DNA of 64,000 bases from positions 66,991-130,990 of the forward strand of contig DASYGV010000086.1 of assembly GCA_035999335.1 (NCBI GenBank). The letters run 5' to 3'. Source of the DNA: Thermoanaerobaculia bacterium. Lineage in GTDB: Bacteria; Acidobacteriota; Thermoanaerobaculia; Gp7-AA8. The position numbers were made by a program, and so were the translations under genes. How positions within the stretch are numbered: the first letter of the stretch is position 1; each line of letters opens with the position of its first letter. Below, one piece after another: positions 7,596 to 54,050 of the stretch. The notes under the pieces were generated by a model. It worked only from the letters and a program-made list of their open reading frames with translations, had not been told where the DNA came from and made no database searches.

Positions 7596-7690
7596 GGGCT
7601 GAAGAGTCGCAAAGTCGCAAAGTCTCAAAGTCGCAAAGAGGGCGGGTCCGACGGCCTTTGCGACTTTGCGACTTTGAGACTTTGCGACTC
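7596..7690. repeat. 35-bp-stem palindrome built from tandem 8-mers (gtcgcaaa x4 / tttgcgac x4)
   Basis: gagtcgcaaagtcgcaaagtctcaaagtcgcaaag - loop - ctttgcgactttgcgactttgagactttgcgactc. It overlaps the last codons of the CPBP protease gene (…ESQSLKVAKSQRP…). Confidence 0.85.
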
Positions 7691-8452
7691 CGCCGGCTCC
7701 CAACGCCGCAGCCACAGGATGCCGGCGACCTCGGCCACCGTCATCCAGATGCTCCCTTCGATGCCGAACTCCCCTCCGGTCAACCACCACGGGCCTTGGC
7801 CGCGCTCGACGAAGACCGTGGCCATCGCGTCGTAGCCGCTGACCTCGTGTCCGAGGATCGGACCGGACATCACGTTCCACGCGAGATGCAGCCCGATCGG
7901 GAGCCACAGACGCCCGTACTTCTCGTACGCGAGCCCAAGCAGAACGCCGCCGAGGAACACGTTCGTGAGGCCGATCCACGACACGGCCGCGTTGCCCGCG
8001 TGAAGCGCCGCGAAGACGAGGGCGACGAACAACAGTGCGAAGCCGCGGTGCCAGCGATGGAGTTTCTGGAATGCATAGCCGCGGAACAACAACTCCTCGT
8101 GGACCGCCGCCGGGAGAAAGACCATGAAGATCTCGAGCCACGGGAATCCAGCGCCGCGCTCGTGCGAAAGGTCCGTCGAGAGGATGACTAGGGCCGCGCA
8201 CATGCTGATCAGGACGACTCCGAACGCGGTGCCGTAGAGAAACTCCGGCACGGCGAGACGTGGCGAGACGAAGAGGCCGAGCGGCCAACGTCCGCGATCC
8301 CAGATCGCGACGGTTGCCGCGGTGGCGACGCCGACGGAGAGGAGTGCCATCCAATGGACGAACGGAAAACGAAGCCACGACAAAACGATGAGTGTGGCAA
8401 CATAGAAACAAACGAACAATGCAAGCGGTGCCACAACGCGGTCGAGCGCGGC
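7625..8452 (-). CDS. CPBP-family intramembrane glutamic endopeptidase (CAAX protease-like)
   Basis: EELLFRG, FxxxH and HxxxN motifs in a multi-TM protein. The start is uncertain; a GTG near 8452 is proposed after trimming an Arg-rich extension. Confidence 0.7.
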   Translation of the reverse strand, partial: AALDRVVAPLALFVCFYVATLIVLSWLRFPFVHWMALLSVGVATAATVAIWDRGRWPLGLFVSPRLAVPEFLYGTAFGVVLISMCAALVILSTDLSHERGAGFPWLEIFMVFLPAAVHEELLFRGYAFQKLHRWHRGFALLFVALVFAALHAGNAAVSWIGLTNVFLGGVLLGLAYEKYGRLWLPIGLHLAWNVMSGPILGHEVSGYDAMATVFVERGQGPWWLTGGEFGIEGSIWMTVAEVAGILWLRRWEPAESQSLKVAKSQRPSDPPSLRL

Positions 8453-8476
8453 CACGCGCTGCTTGAAGGAGGCCGC

Positions 8477-8953
8477 ATGAACAGGATCGCCGCCGACGTC
8501 GCCGCGCTGCTGTTGCGCGTCGTCGCGGGATTGATCTTCCTTCCCCACGGCTGGTCGAAGATCGCCGGCGAGGGAGGCTCCACCGCGTTCGCCGCCGGAT
8601 TGGCCGAGGGCTACGGCATTCCGCTGTTCCTCGGACACCTCGCGGCGTACGTCGAGGTCATCGGCTCCGTCCTGCTCCTCCTCGGATTGCTCACCCGTCT
8701 CGATGCGCTCCTCCTGGCCGGCACGATGTTCGTGGCGGCCTTCGTGGTCCAGCTTCCCGATGCGTTGTTCGAGGTCCCGCCGAATGCTATCAAGGCTTTC
8801 GCGGTCATTCGCGGGATCGAGACCCCGCTCGCGATGTTCGCGATCTGCTGCGCGCTCGTGCTCACCGGCGGCGGGCGCTTCTCGCTCGATTCCGTGCTGC
8901 GGAATCGGTTCGGCAAAAAGAAAACGGCGGCCGAAGCCGCCGCTGTCACGTAG
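8477..8953 (+). CDS. DoxX-family membrane protein
   Basis: Start MNRIAADVAALLLRVVAGLIFLPHGWSKI. This is the typical DoxX pattern (LR..LG..F...G..K; E..G..LLLLGL.TR). Confidence 0.75.
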   Translation: MNRIAADVAALLLRVVAGLIFLPHGWSKIAGEGGSTAFAAGLAEGYGIPLFLGHLAAYVEVIGSVLLLLGLLTRLDALLLAGTMFVAAFVVQLPDALFEVPPNAIKAFAVIRGIETPLAMFAICCALVLTGGGRFSLDSVLRNRFGKKKTAAEAAAVT

Positions 8954-8975
8954 GACGGGCTTCAGCCCGTCTCCG

Positions 8976-9413
8976 TTACTGCCCGATCGCCGCGGCCGCG
9001 CCGCCCGCCATCGGGTCTTCGACGATGATGCCGATGTTCTTCGCGCCGCTGGCGCGGGCGAGATCGAGGAACTTCATCGTCGCCTCGTAGTCGACATCGC
9101 GTCCGCCCGAGAAGAACACCATCTTGGAAGAGTTCCCGCGAAGGATCTCGCGGATCCGGTTGGGGAACTGCTCCATCGTCATCTCTTCCTTGTTGATCAG
9201 CACACGCGGACCCGCGATGAGACGCAGGACGATCTGGTCCTGCACCGCGGACGGCGGGATGCCGGGCGGCGCTTTGGGCGGAACCTTCACGAGATAGCCC
9301 ATCTGAATGACCGGCGTGAGGACCATGAAGATGATCAGGAGCACGAGAACAACGTCCACCAACGGTGTGACGTTGATCTCCGACCGCATCGAACCACTGC
9401 CACCTACTTGCAT
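8976..9413 (-). CDS. exbD: biopolymer transport protein ExbD/TolR
   Basis: Diagnostic ExbD N-terminus (INVTPLVDVVLVLLIIFMV); about 145 aa. Confidence 0.85.
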   Translation of the reverse strand: MQVGGSGSMRSEINVTPLVDVVLVLLIIFMVLTPVIQMGYLVKVPPKAPPGIPPSAVQDQIVLRLIAGPRVLINKEEMTMEQFPNRIREILRGNSSKMVFFSGGRDVDYEATMKFLDLARASGAKNIGIIVEDPMAGGAAAAIGQ

Positions 9414-9417
9414 GGGA

Positions 9418-9873
9418 CTATGCTCCCTCTCCCGGGGATTTCTTCGGCTGCGAGATCAGCCCGACATCGTTGAAGCCAACTTCGCGGCAGGCCTTGAGCA
9501 CGTCGAGCACGTCGCCGTATTTCACTTGGCGGTCGCCCTTGACCGCGATCTCACGATCCGGCGTACGCTCGAAGATCTCCTTGAGCGACGATTCGACCTG
9601 GTCCTTGCGGACGACGTTCGGTCCAAGATAGACCGAGCCGTCCGCCTTCACCGAGATCTGAAGCTGCTTCTCGGTGTCCGGCGTCTTCTCCGGATCTTCC
9701 GTGACCGGAAGGTTCACGGGCACGCCCTTCTGCAGCATTGGCGTGACGACCATGAAGATGATCAGAAGCACCAGGCAGACGTCGACCAGCGGCGTGACGT
9801 TGATATCCGAAGTCAGCGCCGCGTGGCTCAGTTTCTGGAGCGAGCTACCCGGCAGCTTTTTCATCGCCGACAC
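9418..9873 (-). CDS. exbD: biopolymer transport protein ExbD/TolR (second copy)
   Basis: Diagnostic INVTPLVDVCLVLLIIFMV motif; about 151 aa. Confidence 0.85.
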   Translation of the reverse strand: MSAMKKLPGSSLQKLSHAALTSDINVTPLVDVCLVLLIIFMVVTPMLQKGVPVNLPVTEDPEKTPDTEKQLQISVKADGSVYLGPNVVRKDQVESSLKEIFERTPDREIAVKGDRQVKYGDVLDVLKACREVGFNDVGLISQPKKSPGEGA

Positions 9874-10531
9874 CCACTTCCTTCATGAAGTAGATCGCCA
9901 TCTCCGAACCGGAATTGGACATCTCGACGGTGAAGCGGTCGACGCGGTTCTGGAAATAGTTGTAAGCCCATACCGCGGGGATGGCCACGAGGAGGCCGCC
10001 GGCAGTCGTGAACAGCGCTTCGGCGATACCGGCGGAGACCGAGGCGATACCGCCGCCGCCCTTGGCCATGCCGGTGAAGGCGTTGATGATGCCGATGACC
10101 GTTCCGAACAGTCCGACGAATGGCGCGGTTGCACCGATGGTCGCGAGAACGCCGAGGTTTTCCTTCAACTCCGCTACCGTGATCATGGCCGTGCGGTCCA
10201 TGCCCTGGCGCGCGGCCTCGACGGCGAGCTCCATGTCCGTGATGCGCTTGTCGCGGCGCGAGGCCTCGAACTCGAGCAGACCGGCGGCGATGACCTTCGC
10301 CAGGTGGCTCTGCTTGTACTTCTTGGTGACTTCGATGGCCTGGGCATAGTCGCCCTTGGTCAGCAGGTTCGAGAGCGCGCCGAGCAGTTTCAGCGACTGG
10401 TTCTTCGCCTTCGAAAAGGTGAGGTACCGCTCGACCATGACCCACAGCGAGTAGATCGACATTACCGCCATGATGCCGATGACGATAAAGCCGGCGACCG
10501 TCATCTCTTTAAACATGTGTGCCAAATCCAT
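9845..10531 (-). CDS. exbB: MotA/TolQ/ExbB proton channel
   Basis: Three TM helices and the conserved GLLGTVIGIINAF/ASGIAEALFTTAGGL-type motifs. The 3' end overlaps the exbD start. Confidence 0.9.
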   Translation of the reverse strand: MDLAHMFKEMTVAGFIVIGIMAVMSIYSLWVMVERYLTFSKAKNQSLKLLGALSNLLTKGDYAQAIEVTKKYKQSHLAKVIAAGLLEFEASRRDKRITDMELAVEAARQGMDRTAMITVAELKENLGVLATIGATAPFVGLFGTVIGIINAFTGMAKGGGGIASVSAGIAEALFTTAGGLLVAIPAVWAYNYFQNRVDRFTVEMSNSGSEMAIYFMKEVGVGDEKAAG

Positions 10532-10578
10532 GACTCATCCTCCTCGTGCGACGCCGGCCAACCGGCACCGCCTATCTT

Positions 10579-11322
10579 TTAGTTCAATTTGAAGTTGACG
10601 GTAAGGTTGAAGATGACGTCCACCGGCTGCCCGTTGAGCGTACCCGGACGGAACTTCCACTTCTGAACCGCATCTGCAGCGGCCTGATCGAGGCCGAACG
10701 GAAGCGGCTTGAGGACGCGGACGTCGCGGACGTTGCCGTTCTTGTCGATGATGCACTCGACGATGACGATGCCGGCCACGCGGGCCTTGCGCGCCACCTC
10801 GGGATAGTGCGGCTCGACGCGGCTGATGACCACAGGCGCCTTGACGTCGCCACCGACTCGCAGCGGCGCCGTTTGTGCCGGCGGAGGCGCTTCGGTGACG
10901 ATGCCGCCGACGACTCCGCCAACCACACCGCCGAGGACACCGCCCTCGACACCGCCTTCGACGCCACCCTCGACTCCGACGTCCGTGGACGCCGATTCAA
11001 CCGGCTTCACAGTGTCGGGAACGACGGTGGGCGCCATGTTCTGGATGTCCTGCGGAACCTCGACCGGCCTCACTTCGACCGGCTTCACCGTCGCGGCTCT
11101 GGGCGGCGGCGGCGGGGGGGGTGGGGGTGGCGGCGGAGCGGCGGCCACCGAGTACTGCGCGACCTGGGCCGGCGAGTTCTCGGGGAAGTCGACGTTCCAC
11201 AGCGAGCCGAAGAGCGCGCCGACGCCGACCACCACGTGCAGCCCCAGCGACACCGGGAGCGTCAGGTACTTCTGGATCCCGACTTTCTGCTTTCTTGATT
11301 CGACGACTGTGGTTTCGAACAT
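10579..11322 (-). CDS. tonB: energy transducer TonB
   Basis: N-terminal TM helix, a P12 proline tract, a Gly/Val repeat spacer, and a C-terminal TonB domain (VIVECIIDKNGNVRDVRVLK…GQPV). Confidence 0.8.
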   Translation of the reverse strand: MFETTVVESRKQKVGIQKYLTLPVSLGLHVVVGVGALFGSLWNVDFPENSPAQVAQYSVAAAPPPPPPPPPPPPRAATVKPVEVRPVEVPQDIQNMAPTVVPDTVKPVESASTDVGVEGGVEGGVEGGVLGGVVGGVVGGIVTEAPPPAQTAPLRVGGDVKAPVVISRVEPHYPEVARKARVAGIVIVECIIDKNGNVRDVRVLKPLPFGLDQAAADAVQKWKFRPGTLNGQPVDVIFNLTVNFKLN

Positions 11323-11339
11323 GATGTGTGTCCCGTGTG

Positions 11340-12176
11340 TTAGCTCTTCTTGCCGGCGGCCGCGGCAGCGGCTTCGGCCTTCTTCTTCTTCACGATCGCA
11401 ATCGCTTCGTTGCGGATGCGATCTGCCTCGGCGACGAGCTGCTGTTGTTTGACAGGATCGCTCTCGAGCGGCGCCTGCTGACGGTAGAGGAGGCTGAGGT
11501 AAACCATCGCCTCGAAGTAATCGGCGCGCATGCGCGTCGCGCGCAGCAGCGCAGCCTTGCCCCTCTCGATGATCGCGAGGCGCTCGGGGATTTCCTGCGG
11601 CGGGTTCTTGGCGATCTTCTCGTAGCAGACCACGCCGAACGTGTAGAACGCCTCGGGATTCTTGGAGTCGAGGAGGGTGATCTTCTCGTACCAGTTCAGC
11701 GACTCGTTGAAGTCGCCCTGCTTCGCGTAGAGCGTGGCGATGGACCGGACGGCTTCGATGTCGGCCGGATGGTCCTTGAGCCAGTCTCGGAAGTAGTTGA
11801 TCGCCTCGGTGATGCGATCGGCGTTGAGGTAGAGATTGATGAGCGCCTCGCGGGCGATGCGATCGTCGGGGCGCTTCCGCAGATAACTGCGCAGCTCCAC
11901 GATCGCGGCGTCGGCGTTCTTCACGTTCGCCGGCGACTTGTCTTCCGGTACGTACAGACCGATTAGCGAGTACCCGATCATCCGGTCGAGGTCAGGAAAG
12001 CTCTCCGAGTCGATCTCGCGCGCTTTCTTGTAGTGCTGGAGGGCCGTCGCATAGTCTTCCTTCGCGTACGCGTCGTTCGCGTTGCGAATCTCTATGCGAG
12101 CCTGCACCTTCTGACAACCGACGAGAGACAATAGGGAAAGAGAAAGTGCCGCGATTAGGCACAGCTTCTTTTTCAT
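11340..12176 (-). CDS. TPR-repeat lipoprotein (lipobox LVGC)
   Basis: Signal peptide with Cys lipobox. Repeated A..Y....G.....A...Y TPR motifs. It is the first gene of the TonB-ExbBD operon. Confidence 0.7.
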   Translation of the reverse strand: MKKKLCLIAALSLSLLSLVGCQKVQARIEIRNANDAYAKEDYATALQHYKKAREIDSESFPDLDRMIGYSLIGLYVPEDKSPANVKNADAAIVELRSYLRKRPDDRIAREALINLYLNADRITEAINYFRDWLKDHPADIEAVRSIATLYAKQGDFNESLNWYEKITLLDSKNPEAFYTFGVVCYEKIAKNPPQEIPERLAIIERGKAALLRATRMRADYFEAMVYLSLLYRQQAPLESDPVKQQQLVAEADRIRNEAIAIVKKKKAEAAAAAAGKKS

Positions 12177-12345
12177 GTGATTCCGAACTCCCAGATGAGT
12201 GATCGCAGAACTGTGCAGGGGGCGCTGTCAGGCTGCATCCCGGCCCGCGTCAGGCAATGGCCAGCGAATATACAGATGGGTCGCATTACCGTCAACCTTC
12301 TAGTTAGTACCTGAAACCGAAAGTTTTAGCCGAAAACATCCATCT

Positions 12346-12381
12346 GAAAAAAACGCTTCTCCGGCCCTGCCGATGCCGGTT
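12346..12381 (-). terminator. rho-independent terminator after the TDO gene
   Basis: Read on the minus strand: ccggcatcggcagggccgg hairpin followed by agaagcgttttttt. Confidence 0.6.
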
Positions 12382-12461
12382 CGCGATCCTCTCGTCTGAT
12401 GCCATTCGACACCTTTTCCACGCCGAAAGAAACCATCGCGTGTGAAATCTTTCTCGTCGGG

Positions 12462-13163
12462 TCAATAAGTCGGCTTCCATTCCGCGGTCAGATCGCTGAT
12501 CGCGGACCACAACTCCGGAAACAACGGCTCGCGTGTTCCGGCCTCGAGCTGGGCTGCCGGCACCCCCTTCAGCGAATGAACACGGTCGCCGATGATCCGA
12601 AATGCAAGACGCATGTGCGTGAATCGCCACTTCATGAATGCCTCGTCGTAGTCCATCATCGCCTGCAGGAGCCGGAAGAGCGGGTAGTGCTCCTTCGGAT
12701 TGCGTTCCAGCTCGAGCACGGTGACCGATCGTTTTCGGAGCAGCGCCTCGAAATGCGGCCAGACGCGCTTGCCAACATCGAGCAGTCGGCGAAAGCCCGG
12801 CGACTCCTGGCCGCTGCCGCGTCCCAGAGACGTGGTGCGCAAGACGTGGTAGTCGACCGGAGCCATGGTCTCCAGGATGATGATCTGCTCGCGCAGAAGG
12901 TCGATGATCAGCCGCGAGCGGTGGAGGAGGTCGGCAGCGAGCTCGGGCTCGTCGCTCTCGAGATGCACGACGGTGCGGTCGATCTCGTAGTCGATGTGAT
13001 GCAGCCAAAGCTCGGCGGTCTGGTGCATGACCTGGAACAGCCGTTCTTCAGGATTGGAGAGCAGCTCGACCGGTTTCTGCAACTCGAGCAACTCGGGGAC
13101 GCGCACGTAGCGCTCGTAGTCGGTGTTGCCTCTTCCTTCGAGGATGGGACCGGTATGCGGCAT
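12462..13163 (-). CDS. kynA: tryptophan 2,3-dioxygenase family protein
   Basis: TDYERYVRVPELLELQKP and downstream helical motifs fit the bacterial TDO family; 233 aa. Confidence 0.55.
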   Translation of the reverse strand: MPHTGPILEGRGNTDYERYVRVPELLELQKPVELLSNPEERLFQVMHQTAELWLHHIDYEIDRTVVHLESDEPELAADLLHRSRLIIDLLREQIIILETMAPVDYHVLRTTSLGRGSGQESPGFRRLLDVGKRVWPHFEALLRKRSVTVLELERNPKEHYPLFRLLQAMMDYDEAFMKWRFTHMRLAFRIIGDRVHSLKGVPAAQLEAGTREPLFPELWSAISDLTAEWKPTY

Positions 13164-13180
13164 GGGCGCGGATCATACAG

Positions 13181-13235
13181 TTGCGAGTTGCGGGTTGCGA
13201 GTGCCCTCGCAACTCGGAACTCGAAACTCAGACCA
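13181..13235. repeat. heptamer-built palindrome (gttgcga units)
   Basis: gagttgcgggttgcgag tgccc tcgcaactcggaactc. Intergenic between two minus-strand genes. Confidence 0.8.
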
Positions 13236-14430
13236 GCTCGAGGATGTGCCCCAGCTTCGTCTTCTTCGCCTCGAGATACTTCCGCGTCGTCTGCGACGGC
13301 GCGATCTCGAGCGGGACGCGCTCGACGATCTGGAGGCCGAAGCCTTCGATCGCCACGAACTTGGCCGGGTTGTTGGTCATCAGGCGGATCTTGCGGACGC
13401 CGAGGTCGCGGAGGATCTGCGAGCCGGTGCCGTAGTCGCGAATGTCGGGGGCGAAGCCGAGCTTCGCGTTCGCCTCGATCGTGTCCGCGCCGGCGTCCTG
13501 CAGCTCGTACGCGCGCAGCTTGTTGATCAAACCGATGCCGCGGCCTTCCTGCAGAAGATAGAGGATGATCCCCTTCCCTTCCTGTTCGATCAGCGCGAAC
13601 GCGCGCTCGAGCTGATCGCCGCAGTCACAGCGGCTGGAATGGAAGACGTCGCCGGTGAGACACGACGAGTGCACGCGCACGAGCACTTCATCGTCCTCGG
13701 AGATCTCGCCCTTCACCAGCGCGACGTGCTCTTCACCGGTGATGTCGCTCTGGTAGGCGTGCACGCGGAACTCGCCGTGCTCGGTCGGAAGCACGGGCGC
13801 CGCGAGGCAGTGCACGTGCTTCTCGTTGTGCATCCTGTATTTGATGATGTCGGCGACGGAGATGATCTTCAGGCCGTGACGGACGGCGAACTCGCGCAAG
13901 TCCGGCAGGCGCGCCATCGTGCCGTCCTCGTTCATGATCTCGCAGATGACCGCCGCGGGCGTCATGCCCGCGATGAGCGCGAGATCGACCGAGGCCTCGG
14001 TCTGCCCCGCGCGCTTGAGCACTCCGCCCTTCTTCGCGCGCAACGGGAACACATGCCCCGGACGCGCGAGGTCGTGCGGCCGCGTCTTCGGATCGATCGC
14101 GACGCGCACGGTCTCGGAGCGATCGAACGCGGAGATGCCGGTGGTCACTCGGCCTCGCGCCTCGATCGACACCGTGAATGCCGTGCCGAAGTTCGTGGTG
14201 TTGTTCTCGACCATCAGCGGGAGGTCGAGCTCTTTGCACCGCTCCTCGGTGAGCGCGAGACAGATCAGTCCCCGCCCGAACTTCGCCATGAAGTTGATCG
14301 TCTCGGGCGTGACCCGCTCCGCCGCGATGCAGAGATCTCCCTCGTTCTCGCGGTCTTCGTCATCGACGATGATGACCAGCTCCCCGCGGCGATAGAGCTC
14401 GGCGGCTTCCTGAATGTTGGCGAACGGCAT
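13228..14430 (-). CDS. ribBA: bifunctional 3,4-dihydroxy-2-butanone-4-phosphate synthase / GTP cyclohydrolase II
   Basis: N-terminal DHBP synthase motifs ([11 protein letters not shown]) and the C-terminal GCH-II Zn site (CxxGxxxxSxRCDCG); 400 aa. Confidence 0.9.
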
Positions 14431-14449
14431 ATCGAACCGAGACTAAAGC

Positions 14450-16003
14450 TTACTCGACAACCTTGAATTTTTCGGAAAGCGTGTACGACGTCTTCTTGAT
14501 CGTGTCGATCACCTTCACGGTGAAGGTGTAGTCGCCCGGCTTGAACGACTCCAGCGGAATGGCATTGCCGACGCCGTAGTGGCCGGGAACGCCCTTCATC
14601 TCGATCGCGTCCGTTTCGCGCGGCGGCGCCGCCATCTTCACGGCCTTGCCGGTGTTGTCCGTGCCGGCGACGTCGAGCTTCACCTGCAGCTTCGGCAAGC
14701 GCGGTACGTCGGCGGTGTTCACCGCCACCGTTCCCTCGGGAAGCGCCGGCTCGGCGAGCCCGGGGTTGCGCAGCTCGAAGAAGTACCAGAGCTCATCCGA
14801 TGCACGGAAGGCGCGGTCCGCCTTCGGCACGACCCGCACACCGCCGAAGGCGAACGGATCGTCGGGCAACTGCGACTCGGTCAGCGGAAAGATGTTGTTC
14901 GAGAGGATGAGCTGTGAGATCGCGGTGGCGTCCTTGTCGAGCGCGCCCGCGAGCTCCATGTCCGCCGCCGTGAGCGCGACGACCGCGCCGTTCTTCGCGA
15001 GACCGAAGACCCCGCGATGCTTGCCCGCGGGAAGCGTGAGCGATTTGTCGATGTAAAAGTCGTCCTTCGACGCAGCCAGCGTGACCGGCTGCTCGAACGC
15101 GAGGACGTTCTTGCCCGTCGCATCTTCGACGACGCCGAAGAAGGTCACGTCGCCGCTGATGCCCGAGGCTTTCGGGACGTAGAGGCCGACGGGAACGAAG
15201 GTCTGTCCAAAGGAGGTCACGTACTCGCCCCAGGCGACGTAAGCCTTCTTGTCGTACGGATTCTTCGCGTTCTTCTGGTCCGCGACCGCGGTCTTGAATG
15301 TCGCGGTGGTCAGCTCCGTCTGGACGACGGGCGGCGCCTCGGCGACGGGCGGCGGCGTTGGAGCCGCGGCGGCCGTGAACGTCGGCGCGACCTTCAGGTC
15401 CGGCTGGGTGATCGACTTCGCGATCGCGCGCGCCTGCGACTCTTTGAGATCGACCGCGTTGCGGCCGAGCTTGTACGTGGACTGACCTACCGGCACGAAT
15501 TGAATCTGCGCACGCGCCACATGGAAAAGCTCCTTGGCGACGGCGGCATCGTAGACCCACGTGAGCGCCAGCCGGTCGGGCATCGGCTGGCCCATGCTTC
15601 CGGGCTCATCCGGGTTCATGCTCGGGACGTCGGCAGTGCGAGGCTGCACGATGCGCTGCGGTGGGCCGTACACGAGCAGGATCTTGCCGCGATCCGTCAT
15701 CGAGCCTTTCATCTTGCCTTCGGCGAATGTTTTATCGGCGGCCTGGATCCGTTCTTCGATCTGCGAGCGGTACTCGTTCGCGGGTGTCCCCGGCGTCGGA
15801 TCGCGGCGGGCCCAGAAGAGGTCGACGAATGCCTTCGCGTCCGCGTCGGACTTGAGCGTCTTCCAGCTCGCTGCTTCTTCTTTGGTCATCAGGAACTGGT
15901 ACGGTCCCTGTCCCCACTCGATGAACGCGGGGGAGAGATCGGCGATGGCGATCGCCGCGAGGCAGACCAAGGCGGCTGCCGTCACAAACATGCGCAATTT
16001 CAT
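14450..16003 (-). CDS. GWxTD-domain secreted protein
   Basis: Signal peptide. FWARRDPTPGTPANEYRSQIEERIQAADKTF…GSMTDRGKILLVYGPP matches the GWxTD domain consensus (R.DP.P.T..NE...R...A...F…GW.TDRG..Y..YGPP). Confidence 0.6.
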   Translation of the reverse strand: MKLRMFVTAAALVCLAAIAIADLSPAFIEWGQGPYQFLMTKEEAASWKTLKSDADAKAFVDLFWARRDPTPGTPANEYRSQIEERIQAADKTFAEGKMKGSMTDRGKILLVYGPPQRIVQPRTADVPSMNPDEPGSMGQPMPDRLALTWVYDAAVAKELFHVARAQIQFVPVGQSTYKLGRNAVDLKESQARAIAKSITQPDLKVAPTFTAAAAPTPPPVAEAPPVVQTELTTATFKTAVADQKNAKNPYDKKAYVAWGEYVTSFGQTFVPVGLYVPKASGISGDVTFFGVVEDATGKNVLAFEQPVTLAASKDDFYIDKSLTLPAGKHRGVFGLAKNGAVVALTAADMELAGALDKDATAISQLILSNNIFPLTESQLPDDPFAFGGVRVVPKADRAFRASDELWYFFELRNPGLAEPALPEGTVAVNTADVPRLPKLQVKLDVAGTDNTGKAVKMAAPPRETDAIEMKGVPGHYGVGNAIPLESFKPGDYTFTVKVIDTIKKTSYTLSEKFKVVE

Positions 16004-16046
16004 GGGCTCTCCAACTCGTGAAATGACTTGCCCGGTCGAAACAGGC

Positions 16047-16244
16047 CTATTGCTGCTCGAAATTCTCCATCTGGTCGTAGAGACGGTCCATCTCCGAATC
16101 GATCTCTTCCTGGGTCAACACTCCCTTGCGAACCAGCAGCGCCGCCAGGCTGTGCAGCAGGATGCCGTTCTCGATGATCATCTGCTCGATCTGCTCGTCG
16201 TCCTCGTCGTAGTCGGCCTCATTGCCGCGATCGATGTCGTCCAT
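16047..16244 (-). CDS. small acidic hypothetical protein (65 aa)
   Basis: ORF with coding-like composition (MDDIDRGNEADYDEDDEQIEQ…). No recognisable family. Confidence 0.3.
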   Translation of the reverse strand: MDDIDRGNEADYDEDDEQIEQMIIENGILLHSLAALLVRKGVLTQEEIDSEMDRLYDQMENFEQQ

Positions 16245-16261
16245 TTGTCGCTCCCTCCTTC

Positions 16262-16340
16262 AGGGCGCAGGGCGCAGGGCGCAGGGCGCAGAAGCTGACG
16301 GCTCTTCTGCGCCCTGCGCCCTGTCCCCTGTGCCCTGCTC
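16262..16340. repeat. heptamer-built palindrome (gggcgca units)
   Basis: cagggcgcagggcgcagggcgcagggcgcagaag - loop - cttctgcgccctgcgccctgtcccctgtgccctg. A related copy lies at 39985-40040. Confidence 0.85.
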
Positions 16341-16389
16341 CGTGTACCACTGGCCACCGCCAACTGGCAACCCGTAAAATCCGCGCACG

Positions 16390-17382
16390 ATGAAACGGGC
16401 TCTTCTTGCGATCACTCTGTTCGCCTTCACCTTCTGCCAGCAACGCGAGGCGCCGCCGCCCACGACGAACACTGCTCCCGCCGCGAAGCCGCTGCGCGTG
16501 GGACTGCTCACTCCCGGCTCGATCCACGACGGCGGATGGAACGCCATCGCCTACGAGGGTCTGCAGCGCGCCAAGTCGGAGCTCGGCGCAGAGGTCTCGA
16601 ATCAGGAGACGAAGTCGCCCGCGGAGAATCTCGAGGGCTTCCGCGCGTATGGCGCGAAGGGCTTCGACGTCGCGTTCGGCCACGGCTTCGAATATCAGGA
16701 TCCCGCGAAGGCCGCGGGCGCGGAGTATCCGAAGACGATCTTCATCACCACCTCGGGCACGACCATCGCGCCAAACGTAGCGCCGATGCGCTTCGAGCTC
16801 GAGGAAGCGACCTACCTCCTCGGCGTGATCGCCGCGCGCGAGTCGAAGACCGGCAAGGCCGGCCTCGTGGGCGGCATCAACTTCCCGTCGATCGCTTCGA
16901 CGTTTCTCGCGTTCAAGGCCGGCGCACAGTCGGTGAATCCGAACTTCGACGTACGCGAGATCTACACCGGCAACTTCGACGACCTCGCCGCGGCGAGGCT
17001 GGCCACGCTTTCACTCATCAACGCCGGCGCGGACTTCATCCTCCATCAGGCAAATGAAGCGGGACGCGGCGTGTTCCAGGCGTGCAGCGAGCGAAAGGTG
17101 CGCTGCTTCGGGTCGAACAAGAATCAAACCGACCTCGCGCCGGATGTGATCGTCGCGAACGCTGTGCTCGACGTCCCTGGCGCAATCCTGAAGATGGTGC
17201 GCACCGTTCGCGACGGCCAGTTCAAACCGGAGATCCAGTACTTCGGCATGAACGAAGGCGTGGTGACGCTGGAGTGGAACGAAGCGCTGAAGTCACAGAT
17301 CTCGCCGGAAACGGTCGCGGAAGTCGCGCGGCTCGAGCAGGAGATCAAGGCCGGCCGTCTGAAAGTACCGACCGGATTCTGA
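16390..17382 (+). CDS. BMP-family ABC transporter substrate-binding lipoprotein (nucleoside-binding PnrA-like)
   Basis: Signal peptide and lipobox (FTFC). LRVGLLTPGSIHDGGWN, GAKGFDVAFGHGF and FGSNKNQ are typical of the Bmp/PnrA family. Confidence 0.85.
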   Translation: MKRALLAITLFAFTFCQQREAPPPTTNTAPAAKPLRVGLLTPGSIHDGGWNAIAYEGLQRAKSELGAEVSNQETKSPAENLEGFRAYGAKGFDVAFGHGFEYQDPAKAAGAEYPKTIFITTSGTTIAPNVAPMRFELEEATYLLGVIAARESKTGKAGLVGGINFPSIASTFLAFKAGAQSVNPNFDVREIYTGNFDDLAAARLATLSLINAGADFILHQANEAGRGVFQACSERKVRCFGSNKNQTDLAPDVIVANAVLDVPGAILKMVRTVRDGQFKPEIQYFGMNEGVVTLEWNEALKSQISPETVAEVARLEQEIKAGRLKVPTGF

Positions 17383-17383
17383 C

Positions 17384-18670
17384 GTGCGCCTCTCGCGCAT
17401 CACGAAGTCTTTCGGGACGCACTCTAACGTTAGTCGCGCGGTCGACGACGTCTCGCTGACCATCGAGCGCGGCGAGATCCTCGCCGTCATCGGCGAGAAC
17501 GGCGCCGGCAAGACGACGCTGATGCGCATCGCCGCGGGGGAACTTTCTCCGGATGCGGGGGAGGTCCTTCGCTCCGCTCAGGATGACATCGGCTTCGTGC
17601 ACCAGCACTTCCTGCTCGTTCCCGAGCTGACGATCGCCGAGAACCTCGCGCTGATCGAACGGCGTTTCCGCTTCGCAACGCGAAAGACGCTCGAACGCGA
17701 AGCGGTGCGGATGATCGAGTCGAGCGGCATCGAGCTGCACGAGGTCTCCCGCCGCGTCGCGGATCTCTCCGTCGGCGAAAAGTCGAAGCTGGAGCTGATC
17801 AAAGCGATCGCGACGAAACCGTCGACGCTGATCCTCGATGAGCCGACGTCCGTCCTCACGCCGCACGAATCGGAGGAGTTGTTCCGCGTGATGCGCACCC
17901 TCGCAGCGAGCGGCACCGCGATCGTGTTCATCAGCCACAAGCTGCCCGAGGTGCTCGCGATTGCCGAACGCATCGTCGTGATGCGCACGGGAAAGGTCGT
18001 GATGGAAACGCGAGAGGCGACGGCGGAATCGCTCGCGCGCGCGATGACCCCCCAGCCGCCTCTCCCCGCGCACGGGGAGAGGGTCAGGGTGAGGGGCACT
18101 CTCGCGCTGAGTCACGGCAACGTCCAGATTCACCACCACGAGATCCTCGCGATCGTCGGCGTCGCCGGCAACGGCCAGTCCGAGCTCGCGGAGGAATTGC
18201 GCGCGCGCTTCCCGCACGCCGGACAAATCCCCGAGGACCGCACGCGGGACGGCGTGATCGCGCAGATGACGATCGCGGAGAACCTCGCCCTCCGCGGCGT
18301 GCGCGACGCCGAACGGATGATCGAGCTCTACTCGATCCGCGCGCTCGGTCCGCGGCAGCTCGCGGGCGATCTCTCCGGCGGCAATCAGCAGAAAGTCGTC
18401 CTCGCGCGCGAGCTCGATCGCCGTCCGCAAATCATCATCGCCGCCGAGCCGACGCGCGGCCTCGACATCGAGGCCACGAGCTTCGTTCACGAGCGCCTGC
18501 GCGTCGCCGCTGCCGCGGGCGCGGCGATCCTCCTGATCACCTCCGATCTCGACGAAGCGTTCGAGCTCGCGGACGCGATGCAGGTGATCTACCGCGGAAA
18601 ACTCTCGGCGCGTATGACGCCCGAGGAGGCGTCGTCGCGCGTGGCCAACCTGATGGCAGGTGTGGCGTGA
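17384..18670 (+). CDS. ABC transporter ATP-binding protein (duplicated ATPase domains, CUT2-like)
   Basis: GTG start directly after the BMP stop. Walker A GENGAGKTT, signature LSVGEKSKLE, and a second domain LSGGNQQKVVLAREL. Confidence 0.85.
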   Translation: MRLSRITKSFGTHSNVSRAVDDVSLTIERGEILAVIGENGAGKTTLMRIAAGELSPDAGEVLRSAQDDIGFVHQHFLLVPELTIAENLALIERRFRFATRKTLEREAVRMIESSGIELHEVSRRVADLSVGEKSKLELIKAIATKPSTLILDEPTSVLTPHESEELFRVMRTLAASGTAIVFISHKLPEVLAIAERIVVMRTGKVVMETREATAESLARAMTPQPPLPAHGERVRVRGTLALSHGNVQIHHHEILAIVGVAGNGQSELAEELRARFPHAGQIPEDRTRDGVIAQMTIAENLALRGVRDAERMIELYSIRALGPRQLAGDLSGGNQQKVVLARELDRRPQIIIAAEPTRGLDIEATSFVHERLRVAAAAGAAILLITSDLDEAFELADAMQVIYRGKLSARMTPEEASSRVANLMAGVA

Positions 18671-19746: not shown

Positions 19747-20581
19747 ATTGATAGGGGATTCGATCCCGCTGGCGATCCTCGCCGCGACGCCGCTGCTCCT
19801 CGCGGTGCAGGGCGAGCTCGTCGTGCAACGCAGCGGCATGATCAACCTCGGCATCGAAGGGATGATGCTCGTCGCCGCGATGACCGCCGTCCTCGCCGCG
19901 CAACTCACGAACAGCGTCGCCCTCGGCTTCCTCGGCGGCATCGCGGGCGCGTTGATCGTCGCGATCGTCTTCGGCTTCTTCGTCATCACGCTGAAGGCGG
20001 ACCAGATCGTCACCGGCACCGCGATCAACCTCCTCGCCGTCGGCGCGACGAGCTTCGTCTACCGCGAGCTGCAGCGTAGCGAGATCTTCGTGCAGTCGGT
20101 CCCGCGCATCGGCACCGACGTCGTGGTGCCGCTCGCGTGGATCGTTTTCCCGATCGTGCTCGCGATCGTCCTCTGGAACACGTCGTTCGGGTTGCGCCTC
20201 CGAGCCTGCGGCGAGAATCCCGACGTCATCGCGCCGCACGTCGCACGCCATCGCGCCGCCGCACTGGCGATCGAGGCTCTGCTCGCCGGCACCGCGGGCG
20301 CGTACCTCACGCTCGCCTTGTCGAGCGGCTTCGCGGAGAACATGACCGCGGGCCGCGGCTTCATCGCGCTGTCGATCGTGATCTTCGGTCGCTGGAAGCT
20401 GAAAGGCGCGATCCTCGGTACAGCGATCTTTGGTCTCGCCGCAGCGCTGCAGTACGCTGTGCAGGCGTCGGCGCGCGGCGTGCCGTATCATCTGCTTCTC
20501 GCGGTCCCATACATCGTTACGCTGCTGATCCTGTGCGGCATCGCCGGCAAGGTGCGTGCACCGGAATCACTGGGGAGGTAG
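19715..20581 (+). CDS. ABC transporter permease (second permease of the BMP system)
   Basis: Multi-TM protein with the typical branched-chain/ribose-type permease loop (GMINLGIEGMML). Confidence 0.8.
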   Translation: MGSNMLDLVVRLIGDSIPLAILAATPLLLAVQGELVVQRSGMINLGIEGMMLVAAMTAVLAAQLTNSVALGFLGGIAGALIVAIVFGFFVITLKADQIVTGTAINLLAVGATSFVYRELQRSEIFVQSVPRIGTDVVVPLAWIVFPIVLAIVLWNTSFGLRLRACGENPDVIAPHVARHRAAALAIEALLAGTAGAYLTLALSSGFAENMTAGRGFIALSIVIFGRWKLKGAILGTAIFGLAAALQYAVQASARGVPYHLLLAVPYIVTLLILCGIAGKVRAPESLGR

Positions 20582-41054: not shown

Positions 41055-41099
41055 GTCATGAGGGGTGCCAGGATTCACGACGTGAAGTGAGGTTTTCTC

Positions 41100-41215
41100 C
41101 GCGAAGCCTCTGTGTCCTCTGTGTCCCGGTGGTGAATCGGTCTCTTCATCCCGCGAGGGACATAGGAACTCACCACAGAGCCACCGAGCACACAGAGGCT
41201 TCGCGGAGAAAAGCT
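41100..41215. repeat. long imperfect palindrome (gcgaagcctctgtgtcctctgtgtcccggtggtga … tcaccacagagccaccgagcacacagaggcttcgc)
   Basis: About 35-bp arms with ctctgtgt units. It marks the left edge of the accessory segment. Confidence 0.8.
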
Positions 41216-41299
41216 CTTTCGCGTCCGGGGTAACCGCTGCGTTAGCCGGCCGGATCGCGAAGCGTAGCAATGTTGCGCCGACCGCCTGACAACCGCGGG

Positions 41300-48426: not shown

Positions 48427-49904
48427 TCGTCTTCGTAATACCGCACGAGCATCTGGTTATCGAGGCGGTTGATCTCGACGGGCACCGGCAACATGTCGCG
48501 CGGAAAGACGAACATCGCCGCGAGCGTCGACTCGTCGAGAAAACGCGACGGCACGGTGACGCGCGACGGCGCGTCGAACGGCCGCGGCGCCGCGAGCGCG
48601 AAGCCCCACACGCCGAACGACGGCACGGTCGTGTGATACGGACGCACGTGCCATCCCGCGGCTTCCATCGTCCGCACGATGCACCAGTACGAGCGCCGCG
48701 CGTACAACGGCGACGTCGACTGCACGGACACCGCGCCGTCCGGCGCGAGACGCGCGCGCAACAGGCGATAAAAGCGCGTCGAGTAGAGCTTGCCGAGGGA
48801 GAACGAGCTCGGGTCGGGGAAATCGACGATCGCGACGTCAAACGTGTCCCGCACGCCCTCGATCCAGATCATCGCGTCCTGGTTCACGACGCGCACGCGC
48901 GGATCGCGGAACGCGTGACCGTTCAGCGCGCCGAGCGGCAGGAAGCGTTCCGACAGCGCGGTCATCTTCGGATCGAGATCGACCAGCGTCACGTGCTCGA
49001 CGGCGCGATACTTCAGCACCTCTCGCAACGCGAGCCCGTCTCCGCCGCCAAGGACCAGCACGCGCCGCGGCGATCGCGCTGCCGACATCGCCGGATGCAC
49101 GAGCGCCTCGTGATAGCGGTATTCGTCCGCGGAGCTGAACTGCAGGTTCCCGTTCAGGAAGAGCTGGAACCCCGCGGCGTTGTTCGTGACGAGGATGCGC
49201 TGATACGGAGAGCTCGTCGAATACACGATGTCGTCGGCGTACAGCTCGTCTTCGGCGAGAGAGGTGAGCTTGTCGGATTGGACGAATGCGACCAATAGGA
49301 CGGATAGGACCAATAGGGCGCGTATACGCAGAACCATCACGCCGCGCAGCAATGGACGCAGGAGCCACGTGCCGTACAGCCCTACCACGGCGTTGAGCAG
49401 TCCGAAGACGATCGACGTCCGCACCAGTCCGAGGCGCGGCATGAAGAACATCGGGAAGAGCACCGCCGCGAAGAGCGAGCCGATGTAGTCGAAGCTCAGC
49501 ACGCGCGACACGAGCTCCTTGAAGTCGAGATGCTCTTTGAGGATGCGCATCAGGATCGGGAGCTCGAGCCCGACCAGCACGCCGATCGCGAAGACGACGA
49601 GGAAGAGAAAAAGCCGGAACCACTCCAGCCGCGAGAAGCCGAGGAAGAGCATCGGCGCGGAGAGCCCGCCGATCAGCGCGACCGCGAGCTCGACGTCGAC
49701 GAACCGCGCCGCGAGATCGCGCTCGAGAAATCGCGACAGCCAAGCGCCCACGCCCAACGCCGACAGATACAACCCGATGATGAGCGAGAACTGCGTGACC
49801 GAATCGCCGAGGACATAACTCGCCACCGTCCCCGCAAGCAACTCGTAGATCAGGCCGCAGGCGGCGATCACGAGGACGTTGAGGAAGAGGATGGGAGTGC
49901 GGTT
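48408..49904 (-). CDS. speE: membrane-anchored polyamine aminopropyltransferase (SpeE-like, N-terminal about 7-TM domain)
   Basis: C-terminal spermidine-synthase fold ([18 protein letters not shown]…[10 protein letters not shown]…[11 protein letters not shown]) after a about 200-aa polytopic N-terminal domain. A GTG start at 49904 is preferred over the ATG at 49958, which would read through the palindrome. Confidence 0.8.
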
Positions 49905-49980
49905 CACAGTGATGAGTGATGAGTGATGAGTGATGAGTGGCAGAGCGCCGTTCAGCACTCATCACTCATCACTCATCACT
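49905..49980. repeat. heptamer-built palindrome (gtgatga x4 / tcatcac x4)
   Basis: cagtgatgagtgatgagtgatgagtgatgagtgg - loop - cactcatcactcatcactcatcac. Confidence 0.85.
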
Positions 49981-49988
49981 ACTTCACG

Positions 49989-50207
49989 TTACCCGTGCAG
50001 CGCCGCCGCGATGATGATCGCCAGGCCGAGGATCACCGAGGCCATCAGGATCGCGAGCGCCGTGTTGTGGTCGGCCTCGATCTCCTTGGTGATCGAGAAC
50101 GGCGAGATCTTCACCATCGCCCAATACGCCACGGCGAAGACGATCACGCCGAAAACCGTGTAGCCCACCGTGCTGAGAAACGTCCGCAGAGCTGGAACGA
50201 GATCCAT
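49989..50207 (-). CDS. DUF350-family small membrane protein
   Basis: 72 aa with two TM helices. ITKEIEADHNTALAILMASVILGLAIIIAAAL matches the DUF350 core (N.A.AI…G..LG.AI). Confidence 0.6.
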   Translation of the reverse strand: MDLVPALRTFLSTVGYTVFGVIVFAVAYWAMVKISPFSITKEIEADHNTALAILMASVILGLAIIIAAALHG

Positions 50208-52311: not shown

Positions 52312-52653
52312 CCGTCCGCGCTCCACCTTGCGCACGCGCACGTCCCGCGCGCCGAGGAGCGCGGCCAGACGCTCCTCCCACGGCCAGTCGGGACGCGGGC
52401 GACAGCAATAGAGATTGATGGTGGCGATCCCGTGCTCGGGATAGGTGTGACACGCGAGGTGCGACTCCGTGAGCATCACGAAGCCGGTGACGCCGGCGTG
52501 CCCCGGAAAGACGTGCCACGCGGGCGCGTGCAGCGGCTGCAGGTTCAGCTCGCCGATGACGCTGGCGAAGAGGCCGCCGAGGACTTCGACGTCCCGCAAC
52601 GAGTCCGCATCACACCCGCCAGCCTCGACCAGCCACTCTGCACCGATTTCCAT
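52309..52653 (-). CDS. speH: S-adenosylmethionine decarboxylase proenzyme (small, SpeH-type)
   Basis: AGVTGFVMLTESHLACHTYPEHGIATINLYCC contains the ES (serine) autoprocessing site and the PE..G/TCG-like motifs of class-1 AdoMetDC. Confidence 0.8.
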   Translation of the reverse strand: MEIGAEWLVEAGGCDADSLRDVEVLGGLFASVIGELNLQPLHAPAWHVFPGHAGVTGFVMLTESHLACHTYPEHGIATINLYCCRPRPDWPWEERLAALLGARDVRVRKVERGR

Positions 52654-52686
52654 GGGCGGGGGAAAGGATACAAGATTCATTCAGTT

Positions 52687-52793
52687 TATCCCGCGCGTAG
52701 ACGCGGGATCTCCGGTCATCCCGGCAGAGACTGCTGCCATGGCACGGATCGTCGCGAGGGCACCGGAGATCCCGCGTCTACGCGCGGGATAAA
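52687..52793. repeat. 31-bp perfect inverted repeat pair with 44-bp spacer in divergent promoter region
   Basis: ttatcccgcgcgtagacgcgggatctccggt … accggagatcccgcgtctacgcgcgggataa. Confidence 0.85.
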
Positions 52794-52847
52794 CTACAGG
52801 TCGATTTCCACGTACTATTGCTCGTCACACGGAGGTCACATACAGCC

Positions 52848-53972
52848 ATGGGACTTTGGGACGCAATCAAGAACGAGTTCATCCAGATCATCGAGTGGCT
52901 CGATGACAGCAACAACACCCTGGTCTACCGGTTCCCGGTGCACGAGCAGGAGATCAAGATGGGCGCGCAGCTCACCGTGCGCGAGAACCAGGTCGCCATC
53001 TTCATCAACGAAGGGCAGGTGGCGGACCTCTTCAAGCCCGGCCGCTACGAGCTCTCCACGCAGAACATGCCCATCATGACGACGCTGCGGAGCTGGAAGT
53101 ACGGCTTCGACTCGCCGTTCAAGGCCGAGGTCTACTTCTTCAACACGCGGCTGTTCACGGATCTGAAGTGGGGCACGTCGAACCCGGTGATGATGCGCGA
53201 CGCCGAGTTCGGGATGATCCGCATGCGGGCGTTCGGAACATACGCGATCCGCATCGCCGACGCGAAGGAGTTCTTCAAAACCGTCGTCGGCACGCAGGGT
53301 CTCACGACCACCGAAGACATCCTCGTGCAGCTCCGCTCGACGATCATCAGCCATCTGTCCGACATCATCGCGGAGTCGAAGATCGCGGCGCTGGATCTCG
53401 CGTCCAGCTACCGCGAGCTGTCGACTCTCGCGCAAAAGGAGCTCGCGCCGTCGTTCACCACATTCGGGCTCGAGCTCGCGCGCTTCAACATCGACAACGT
53501 CTCGCTCCCCGAGGAAGTGGAAGCCGCGATCGACCAGCGCACGAAGCTCGGCGTCCTCGGCGACCGCATGAGTCAGTACACGCAGATGCAGGCCGCGGAC
53601 TCGATCAAGATCGCGGCGGCGAACGAAGGCGGTATCGCCGGCGCGGGCGTCGGCCTCGGCGCGGGCGTGGCGATGGGTCAAGCGATGAGTGGAGCGTTCA
53701 ACGCGCCTCCGCCGCCGCAGGGCGCGTCCGCGCCTCCGCCTCCTCCGGGTGGTGCGGCGAACGCGCCACGCTGGTCGATCGCGATCGACGGCAAGACGTA
53801 CGGCCCCTACACGGATGACGCGCTGAAGACGATGGTCCAAAGCGGACAGGTCGCCGCTTCGACACAGGCCTGGCGCCCTGGCGCCAGCGGCTGGGCGTCG
53901 CTCGACACGTATTCGGAGCTGGGCCTCGGCGGCGGAAGCGCGATGCCGCCACCACCGCCACCACCGAAGTAG
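52848..53972 (+). CDS. SPFH/Band-7 family protein (Band_7_1, YdjI-like) with C-terminal DUF4339 (GYF-like) domain and poly-Pro linker
   Basis: The N-terminal 260 aa match the virion-core-like SPFH family. The C-terminus WSIAIDGKTYGPYTDDALKTMVQSGQVAASTQAWRPGASGWASL is DUF4339-like. Confidence 0.75.
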   Translation: MGLWDAIKNEFIQIIEWLDDSNNTLVYRFPVHEQEIKMGAQLTVRENQVAIFINEGQVADLFKPGRYELSTQNMPIMTTLRSWKYGFDSPFKAEVYFFNTRLFTDLKWGTSNPVMMRDAEFGMIRMRAFGTYAIRIADAKEFFKTVVGTQGLTTTEDILVQLRSTIISHLSDIIAESKIAALDLASSYRELSTLAQKELAPSFTTFGLELARFNIDNVSLPEEVEAAIDQRTKLGVLGDRMSQYTQMQAADSIKIAAANEGGIAGAGVGLGAGVAMGQAMSGAFNAPPPPQGASAPPPPPGGAANAPRWSIAIDGKTYGPYTDDALKTMVQSGQVAASTQAWRPGASGWASLDTYSELGLGGGSAMPPPPPPPK

Positions 53973-53974
53973 TT

Positions 53975-54050
53975 CGACGTTGCGAGTTGCGAGTTGCGAG
54001 CGCCTCTTGGCGTTTCGCGCTCGCAACTCGTAACCCGCAACTCGCAAGAT
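53975..54050. repeat. heptamer-built palindrome (gttgcga units)
   Basis: gttgcgagttgcgagttgcgagcgcctcttggcgtttcgcgctcgcaactcgtaacccgcaactcgcaa. Confidence 0.85.

Follow-up and report, generated by a model that had tools for sequence, protein, structure and literature searches.

Short-unit tandem palindromes at gene junctions of a Thermoanaerobaculia genome resemble STRR-type repeats and turn over among close relatives

Tandem arrays of units of seven to nine nucleotides are known from several bacterial groups. In Geobacter metallireducens, paired sites on opposite strands each consist of 3–5 tandem copies of an octa-, nona- or heptanucleotide (Aklujkar et al., 2009, PMC2700814); they fall into classes 1–3 with the units GTTGCTYN (×4), TCTCCGTS[Y] (×3) and MTYCTGA (×5), occupy 8–24 intergenic locations per class, one of them between the operon genes proB and proA, and were labelled "putative global regulator binding sites" with IHF or HU as the guessed protein (PMC2700814). 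The same study reported a heptamer family, (GGACCGG)×4, both within and between genes. GGGAATC arrays, occasionally as inverted pairs, are known from Xanthomonas and Nostoc (PMC4692102), TAACTGA arrays lie beside start codons in Beggiatoaceae (PMC4679880), and an excess of heptamer repeats in bacteria is attributed to polymerase slippage in the part of PMC4692102 that cites Mrazek (2007). We found no literature on such elements in Acidobacteriota. Here we describe a set of them in a Thermoanaerobaculia bacterium of that phylum, in a stretch of 64,000 nucleotides (contig DASYGV010000086.1 of assembly GCA_035999335.1, positions 66,991–130,990; hereafter the window, in whose coordinates all positions are given). 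At six loci, E1–E6, a tandem array of a 7- or 8-nt unit is followed by its own reverse complement. With slightly better than even confidence, we read these elements as STRR-like short-unit tandem repeats, mainly palindromic, that behave as REP-like intergenic passengers of gene junctions and of tolerant coding loops and termini.

Direct reading, Tandem Repeats Finder and an inverted-repeat search agreed on the six palindromes. E1 (7604–7690) consists of (AGTCGCAA)×4, a 17-nt loop and (TTGCGACT)×4, with 35-nt arms that were 94% complementary in the inverted-repeat search. E2 (13179–13229) is a palindrome of AGTTGCG-type units, and E3 (53979–54047) reads (GTTGCGA)×3, loop, (TCGCAAC)×4. E4 (16261–16338) is composed of (CAGGGCG)×4, a loop of 9–15 nt and (CTGCGCC)×5, its outer units decaying; E5 (39971–40041) is a palindrome of the same CAGGGCG units, and E6 (49908–49980) comprises (AGTGATG)×4.6, a loop and (CATCACT)×4. 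Across the palindromes, arms count 3–5 units and stand 5–19 nt apart, and the Tandem Repeats Finder rows have a period of 7 or 8, 3.1–4.6 copies and 80–100% matches. Three more arrays are one-armed: (CAGCACT)×4 on the minus strand at 33675–33705, with no complementary arm within 70 nt; CCGCAAC-CCGCAAC-TCGCAAC on the plus strand at 38501–38527, inside an MFS transporter gene; and, missing from the original prediction made from the same DNA, a degenerate AGTCCTG/AGTGCTG/AATCCTG/AGTCATG array on the plus strand at 41033–41062, which forms the 3' end of a 70-aa gene and encodes its C-terminal ...EVLSAES. The palindromic form therefore prevails in the window, by six to three, and at least five unrelated unit types coexist within its 64 kb.

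A detector of tandem 7/8-mer runs found nine in the window, seven of them with a complementary arm; 40 dinucleotide-preserving shuffles of the window gave a mean of 0.23 runs and no palindromic one. Predicted free energies, which the original prediction had proposed as a check, were −28 to −75 kcal/mol for the folded RNA of the six elements (z −3.4 to −10), and no shuffle was as stable: E1 reached −57.8 kcal/mol (z −8.0), E2 −28 kcal/mol (z −3.4), E3 −46.8, E4 −72 to −75, E5 −52.6 and E6 −54.3 kcal/mol (z −9.3). The original prediction had placed seven loci under one architecture. This stands for the six, where the arrays are read directly and the shuffles offer no counterpart, and not for the seventh, a long imperfect hairpin at 41089–41216 (47-nt arms, a 9-mer ×2.2, −78 kcal/mol) that has no further copy in any fetched locus and is a singleton, not a member of the tandem-unit family. 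In a search of the whole window (64% G+C) against Rfam 15, the sole match was a tRNA-Leu at 33582–33665, so that the elements correspond to no known RNA family. Three independent, near-clonal metagenome assemblies of one population have the elements in identical form, which rules out assembly artefacts and led us to reject hypervariability; positions 38408–59907 are 100% identical to the JGI metagenome contig Ga0373492_0000012, and two sister-sample contigs match at 99.9–100%.

All six palindromes fill gaps between genes, as had been proposed, and the three one-armed arrays lie in or at gene ends or in loops. Five of the six separate co-directional genes, with the upstream stop codon inside the stem or no more than 8 nt from its foot, and the next start codon follows 0–17 nt past the stem at E2, E3, E5 and E6 and 63 nt past it at E1. 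On the minus strand, E1 stands between a CPBP/Rce1-like gene and a thiolase gene, E5 between the stop codon of YebC (40043) and the start of Prs (39963), and E6 between the stop codon of DUF350 (49989) and the GTG start of SpeE (49907). E2 lies between RibBA, whose stop codon (13228–13230) overlaps one foot, and a tryptophan dioxygenase gene that starts at 13163, 15 nt past the other foot. On the plus strand, E3 fills the 76-nt gap between the stop codon of a Band7/SPFH gene (53972) and the ATG of a zinc-ribbon protein gene (54049). E4 separates divergent genes, a 65-aa gene starting at 16244 (minus strand) and Bmp starting at 16390 (plus strand); a conserved block (…TGGTACACGGAG) lies on one side of it and, abutting it, the Shine-Dalgarno sequence of the 65-aa gene on the other, which places E4 in the leader of that gene.

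The same junctions were compared in Thermoanaerobaculia metagenome-assembled genomes (MAGs), using loci L003–L008, syntenic at 86–93% RibBA identity, and loci retrieved through SpeE, LeuA and MFS homologues (L083–L087 and L208–L210). The E1 site carries the same AGTCKCAA unit in L003; L004 has (TGCAGAA)×4 and its complement there, and L005 a decayed form of this palindrome. E2 is absent from L003–L006, and other elements occupy its site in L007 and L008. The E4 site is empty in L003 (93% RibBA identity) and L004, which have 14–20 unrelated nucleotides there; L005, L007 and L008 have different tandem-unit elements at other positions in that spacer. The E5 site is empty in L083/L085, L208 and L210, with a stop-to-start gap of 4–19 nt, and holds a (GGTTGGC)×4 palindrome in L209; at the E6 site, stop and start are 1 nt apart in L087, L083 has an AGTTTGC/AGTTGGC palindrome, L209 again a (GGTTGGC)×4 palindrome and L210 a conventional REP-like palindrome. 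The E3 site, at the Band7 junction, bears a large hairpin of some sequence in every lineage compared: in L083 a palindrome of GTTGCCM units, in L087 and L209 perfect palindromes that are unrelated and not made of units. The junction orthologous to that of the singleton hairpin measures 1 nt in L083 and contains different long palindromes in L209 and L210. These comparisons show that the elements are gained, lost and replaced within roughly 5–15% protein divergence and that each lineage or genome has its own unit families. The mobility suggested in the original prediction is thus upheld insofar as empty orthologous sites reveal a dynamic element.

Copies of one unit at separate junctions share more than the unit. 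E4 and E5 have the inner stem CAGAAG/CTTCTG in common, and the two GGTTGGC copies of L209 the inner stem CGGGAG/CTCCCG; loops are unrelated among copies of one unit. The AGTTGCG and CAGGGCG types have two copies each in the 64-kb window, and GGTTGGC has two in 21 kb of L209. In the more distant relative L008, far larger palindromes fill the same intergenic regions (L008:7780–8110 and L008:11200–11480), their arms made of tandem units of ~23 nt that contain GTTGTCG/CAACCGA heptamers.

The two arms of an element change together. Along the four units at the E1 site, the variable position is G,T,G,G in the window; L003 has T,G,T,T, mirrored as A,A,C on its other arm. In the central loop of MFS orthologues, palindromes of two flavours, GAACGAT..ATCGTTC and GAAGGAT..ATCCTTC, were confirmed on DNA, and the C/G difference between them is compensated on the opposite arm. 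At the peptide level, R (CGA) occurred with V (GTT) nine times and G (GGA) with L (CTT) eight times, with two mixed cases (Fisher p = 7e-4, kinship ignored). Such complementarity is not explicable by selection on the protein; it requires either that pairing is selected or that the arms template each other. Conservation falls on the complementarity between arms, not on the sequence of the unit. The number of units differs between arms (4 vs. 5 in E4, 4 vs. 2 at the E3 site of L083), and the inverted-repeat search revealed several slipped pairing registers.

Several elements extend into coding sequence, as the original prediction had noted. The stop codon of the CPBP (Rce1-like) gene (7625–7627) lies inside E1, which encodes about the last 21 residues; past the last conserved helix the protein is lineage-specific and tracks the resident element, with the tail ESQSLKVAKSQRPSDPPSLRL in the window, SLKVAKSQSLKEGGKNPL in L003 and AECRMQNAE, from TGCAGAA units, in L004. 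The tail TTQHSALSTQN of the LeuA-like protein is likewise the CAGCACT array at 33675–33705, read through three frames; only the closest homologues (89–96%) share it, and others end in different short tails. The C-termini of both proteins are therefore supplied by repeats, and comparison of orthologues confirms that they are lineage-specific. Overlooked until now was a tRNA-Leu(CAA) gene (33579–33665, minus strand) directly downstream of the LeuA-family gene, with the CAGCACT array directly upstream of the tRNA. A larger palindrome with this tRNA as its loop was considered and rejected, as no complementary arm lies downstream of the tRNA. Given the position of the tRNA, the longest open reading frame (ORF) of the gene after the LeuA-family gene (start 33608) is an over-extension. 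A second tRNA call, an ARAGORN tRNA-Met at 15580–15656 inside a GWxTD gene, has no Rfam support and is probably false.

An N-terminal extension of SpeE, ITHHSSLIT, had also been ascribed to an element, and it turns out to be an artefact of choosing the longest ORF. Nearly all of the 120 listed homologues measure 498–500 aa, whereas the extended ORF would give 516 aa; the JGI and NCBI entries of identical protein sequence have 499 aa. SpeE therefore starts at GTG 49907, the base after the hairpin. The fourth case, the array at 38501–38527, is indeed present in the central loop of the MFS transporter, where it encodes the peptide SATRNSQLP, but it is not a simple insertion, because the loop has the same length in L083 (a relative of the 94% class), which is free of the array and merely divergent in its DNA there. 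Tolerance in coding sequence is seen better in MFS orthologues at 74–82% identity, many of which have central-loop peptides with a period of seven residues, such as NDERGTMNDE…SSFIVHRSSF and KDEGGRMKDE…SSFILHPSSF (proteins P0246–P0360). At the DNA level the peptides correspond to complete heptamer palindromes that are read in frame: GAACGAT..ATCGTTC in L208 (10568–10635), GGATGAA..TTCATCC in L209 (loop region within 10001–11254) and GAGGAAG..CTTCCTC in L210 (loop region within 10001–11227). Among 99 MFS orthologues, 39 had the right-arm signature of a 7-aa period and 17 had both arms. Coding use in the window itself is confined to tails and the one-armed array, and the orthologues, with their full in-frame palindromes, strongly support the view that these repeats can reside in coding sequence.

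If the elements are STRR-like repeats of this kind, their arrays would lengthen and shorten through slipped-strand mispairing of the unit, and the complementarity of the arms would be maintained by template switching within the element, by selection for pairing, or by both, while copies would spread through the genome by some copying route. Because they are located between tightly packed co-directional genes, most copies would be transcribed within polycistronic mRNAs, in which they would fold as very stable intercistronic stem-loops without a U-tract, acting at most as barriers to 3' exonucleases or as insulators for the upstream cistron. At coupled stop/start junctions they may be tolerated because the codons on either side of a perfect stem, stop and start, stay close in space, and a copy landing in frame in a flexible protein segment would simply be translated.

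Several observations weigh against this account. Identity of the elements in the three near-clonal assemblies indicates that slippage is not fast at that timescale, and the non-conserved loops fit a simple copy-and-paste process poorly, unless loops drift freely. Short direct repeats flank E5 (CATGAT; 39963–40050) and E6 (GTGAA; 49900–49995), and the left GTGAA copy at E6 preserves the ancestral start-codon context of the empty site in L087, resembling a target duplication; none was seen at the other copies or at palindromes in metagenomes, and we dropped target-site duplication as a defining feature. No mobilizing enzyme was identified, in that the precomputed Pfam hits for the window's genes and their neighbours include no transposase. 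Directly past E1 (CGAATATCATCCCC, 7545–7600) and E2 (GTATGATCC, 13163–13178) stand −10-like TATCAT/TATGAT boxes conserved in L003 and L004, which would fit a terminator followed by a promoter at these two sites only. Read-through, hairpin formation in vivo and an effect on mRNA stability are deductions from sequence, and the census covers 64 kb of the source genome and ~200 kb of close relatives.

Among the alternatives, the one that survives best would make the elements local mutational by-products, each formed on the spot when a heptamer duplicated by chance underwent slippage and was copied by fold-back or template switching, with neither dispersal nor function. We consider this rather unlikely. 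The unequal arms with their slipped registers, the unrelated loops and the lack of both a transposase (among Pfam hits in the window region) and a consistent target duplication all agree with it, as does the documented bacterial heptamer excess, ascribed to slippage in the part of PMC4692102 that cites Mrazek (2007). Purely local events, however, would not be expected to bring the same unit together with the same inner stem to separate junctions, as in E4/E5 and at the E5 and E6 sites of L209, or to leave three copies on one short metagenome contig (L114). E2, E3 and the MFS array also share the order CCGCAAC-TCGCAAC, a weak point given that such alternation is common elsewhere.

The original prediction regarded the elements as probable terminators, and Rho-independent termination or attenuation at gene 3' ends has points in its favour: very stable, GC-containing stems directly follow stop codons at five of six sites, the boxes past E1 and E2 suggest a separate promoter for the next gene, and some large hairpin is retained at the Band7 junction in every lineage. 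Yet none of the six has a T-run after it on the transcribed strand, the elements beyond position 20000 being checked by eye, and the terminator scan of 1–20000 flagged none of the elements in its range but does find a canonical intrinsic terminator at 8923–8944 (minus strand), with a 9-bp GC stem, AGCGGCGGC-TTCG-GCCGCCGTT, followed by TTCTTTTT (TTTCTTTTT T-run). The organism therefore uses ordinary terminators. E3, E5 and E6 end 1, 7–17 and 0 nt ahead of the next start, leaving no room for a promoter, and where relatives have empty sites these gene pairs lie 1–19 nt apart, an arrangement that suggests operons with translational coupling. SpeE, Prs and the zinc-ribbon gene would be silenced if termination were efficient, and we therefore consider the hairpins to be transcribed through. 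E4 stands in a 5' leader between divergent genes, and complete palindromes lie in frame within MFS genes. Classical termination by the elements is thus unlikely, and the expectation that they act as terminators is not sustained. We also asked whether TTGCGA in the arms could be a −35 element for the TATCAT box and rejected this, since the spacings are 14 or 22 nt. The tryptophan dioxygenase start lies within ~10 nt of its box and has no Shine-Dalgarno sequence, which suggests a leaderless mRNA.

A further possibility concerns how the arrays are laid down. Loci of other phyla anchored on RibBA (~1 Mb) mostly lack tandem arrays, and tandem-unit palindromes were present in Nitrospiraceae loci and in one MAG each of Geobacter, Deltaproteobacteria and Vicinamibacterales. 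When metagenome contigs were scanned for GTTGCGAGTTGCGRGTTGCG, at least 120 stretches (L088–L207) matched, on contigs of 31–73% G+C; GTTGCGA arrays numbered at least 128, of which at least 25 had a complementary arm within 120 nt. One 3.2-kb contig of 61% GC (L114:199–2771) has three AGTTGCG palindromes, each filling the gap ahead of a start codon. Carriage of the palindromes by phages was rejected, as viral contigs hold one-armed arrays only, and in one-armed GTTGCGA arrays the orientation trends relative to ORF ends were weak and non-significant. The arrangements (X)n-loop-(rcX)n and (rcX)n-loop-(X)n, where rcX is the reverse complement of unit X, are distinct objects, each alike on both strands. 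E2 and E3 share the order (GTTGCGA)n..(TCGCAAC)n, and among the matches listed GTTGCGA palindromes have this order in 16:0 cases, or 11:0 with the strict pattern. In palindromes of other units from the window and the protein-anchored loci, G outnumbers C on the 5' arm 14 times, C outnumbers G 3 times and the two are equal in 2 cases; 18 of these 19 arms are purine-rich. The 13 other-unit palindromes of the scan loci split only 7:5. Polarity is a tendency, not a rule, except for the GTTGCGA unit. Pairing energy does not account for it, and a directional origin or a constraint at the RNA level might explain it. The motif AGT/ACT occurs in five of seven window unit types (AGTTGCG, AGTGATG, AGTGCTG, AGTCCTG and AGTCGCAA) and not in CAGGGCG, GGTTGGC or TGCAGAA; it is also the core of cyanobacterial STRR1/STRR3 and of the Beggiatoaceae TAACTGA repeat (PMC4679880 for TAACTGA).

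Given that the fixed polarity of GTTGCGA, its recurrence at 31–73% GC and the repeated refilling of junctions fit random slippage poorly, we considered a dedicated directional process, in which a widespread polymerase/primase-, reverse-transcriptase- or transposase-like enzyme would deposit a short-unit array at gene junctions, followed by the inverted copy of it. We hold this to be quite unlikely; if true, it would amount to a new class of templated or mobile element. Least credible to us is that the elements are binding-site arrays for a sequence-specific protein (a global regulator, of the IHF/HU type or another, or else S1, Csp, CsrA or a similar RNA-binding protein): cooperative sites are typically tandem short units, such proposals have been published for the closest analogues (IHF/HU in PMC2700814, RNA binding for TAACTGA in PMC4679880), and thermodynamics does not explain why GTTGCGA keeps one topology across the G+C range, but a binding protein would have to recognize the at least five unrelated units of the window and follow a unit that changes at a given junction between close relatives while the hairpin architecture stays, with arm complementarity conserved through two-sided changes and the unit sequence not.

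Repeats of other kinds also occur in these genomes. A conventional REP-like palindrome family with the core GCCGGCTTCCAGCCGGC lies at 4074–4162 and 18673–18794 of the window and again at L208:637–752, L208:7220–7335 and L209:8222–8254, and related palindromes of the GGCTTCAGCC type are found in L087 and L210 at the junctions of E3 and E6. A REPIN-like doublet at 52683–52795, in the divergent upstream region of the Band7 gene, consists of two perfectly complementary 34-nt arms, 45 nt apart, each with a small hairpin, ATCCCGCG-CGTAGA-CGCGGGAT; in L083 the gap measures ~50 nt. A 21-nt tandem repeat (×12.9, TCTCTTCGACCAAGAGATCTT) at 5060–5331, with an internal TCTCTT/AAGAGA inverted repeat in each unit, lies within a called gene of 148 aa and is the sole place of indels between the window and the sister assembly L001.

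Over-representation of heptamer repeats is widespread among bacteria, and this lineage offers a clean comparative system in which the same junctions are empty, filled or occupied by another unit in close relatives, and in which the arms change together even in a protein-coding loop. It makes testable whether pairing is selected or templated, whether the hairpins affect operon expression and whether a directional mechanism operates. In practical terms, gene callers are misled by the elements, which give rise to spurious N-terminal extensions and to C-terminal tails that vary.

Compared with known systems, the elements share with intrinsic terminators a GC-containing stem-loop right after a stop codon, and differ in lacking a U-tract, in stems of 20–35 pairs instead of 5–12, in loops of often 9–19 nt and in a start codon that follows the stem immediately. 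The Rickettsia palindromic elements (RPE) of Ogata et al. (2000) are reportedly palindromic repeats that lie in frame in genes and are translated as extra segments. In-frame translated palindromes in tolerant protein regions are likewise found in the MFS orthologues of L208, L209 and L210, whereas RPE are elements of 100–150 nt with conserved sequence and without tandem heptamers. A MITE would show terminal inverted repeats, a target-site duplication of fixed length and near-identical interiors; here direct repeats flank only E5 and E6, and loops are unrelated. With the REP, BIME and REPIN families, the elements share a dispersed intergenic location between co-directional genes, imperfect palindromy, presence or absence among strains and a proposed role in mRNA stabilization (PMC3733652, PMC3116915). 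REP units, in contrast, have a fixed sequence of 20–40 nt and a GTAG or CGTC head recognized by RAYT transposases (PMC3733652, PMC3116915), while the arms in the window are tandem short units; a GTAG/CGTC tag stands at the foot of only two of six palindromes (GACG at E3, CTAC at E6), which is chance level, and the Pfam hits for the window's genes and their neighbours include no RAYT.

To call the unit-based construction unusual for REP elements, as the original prediction did, was fair, but it is not unprecedented, considering the Geobacter pairs (PMC2700814) and the heptamer arrays (PMC4692102, PMC4679880). Judged by sequence architecture, the elements resemble known but little-studied repeats, with the Geobacter paired sites as the closest precedent, followed by cyanobacterial STRR arrays. 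Like STRR-type heptamer and octamer arrays, they have at least three head-to-tail copies of 7–8 nt, are non-random and lie mainly between genes near starts and stops; in cyanobacterial STRR and other heptamer arrays, too, unit number varies between strains and some inverted pairs form stem-loops, although those arrays are mainly one-armed with a single dominant unit per genome, whereas the window has mainly palindromes and several coexisting units. With the Geobacter paired sites, the window elements share 3–5 tandem units of 7–9 nt on opposite strands, close together. The Geobacter sites belong to another phylum, have other units and a variable distance between sites, and were interpreted through IHF/HU; that work (PMC2700814) contains no analysis of turnover, arm covariation or in-frame translation.

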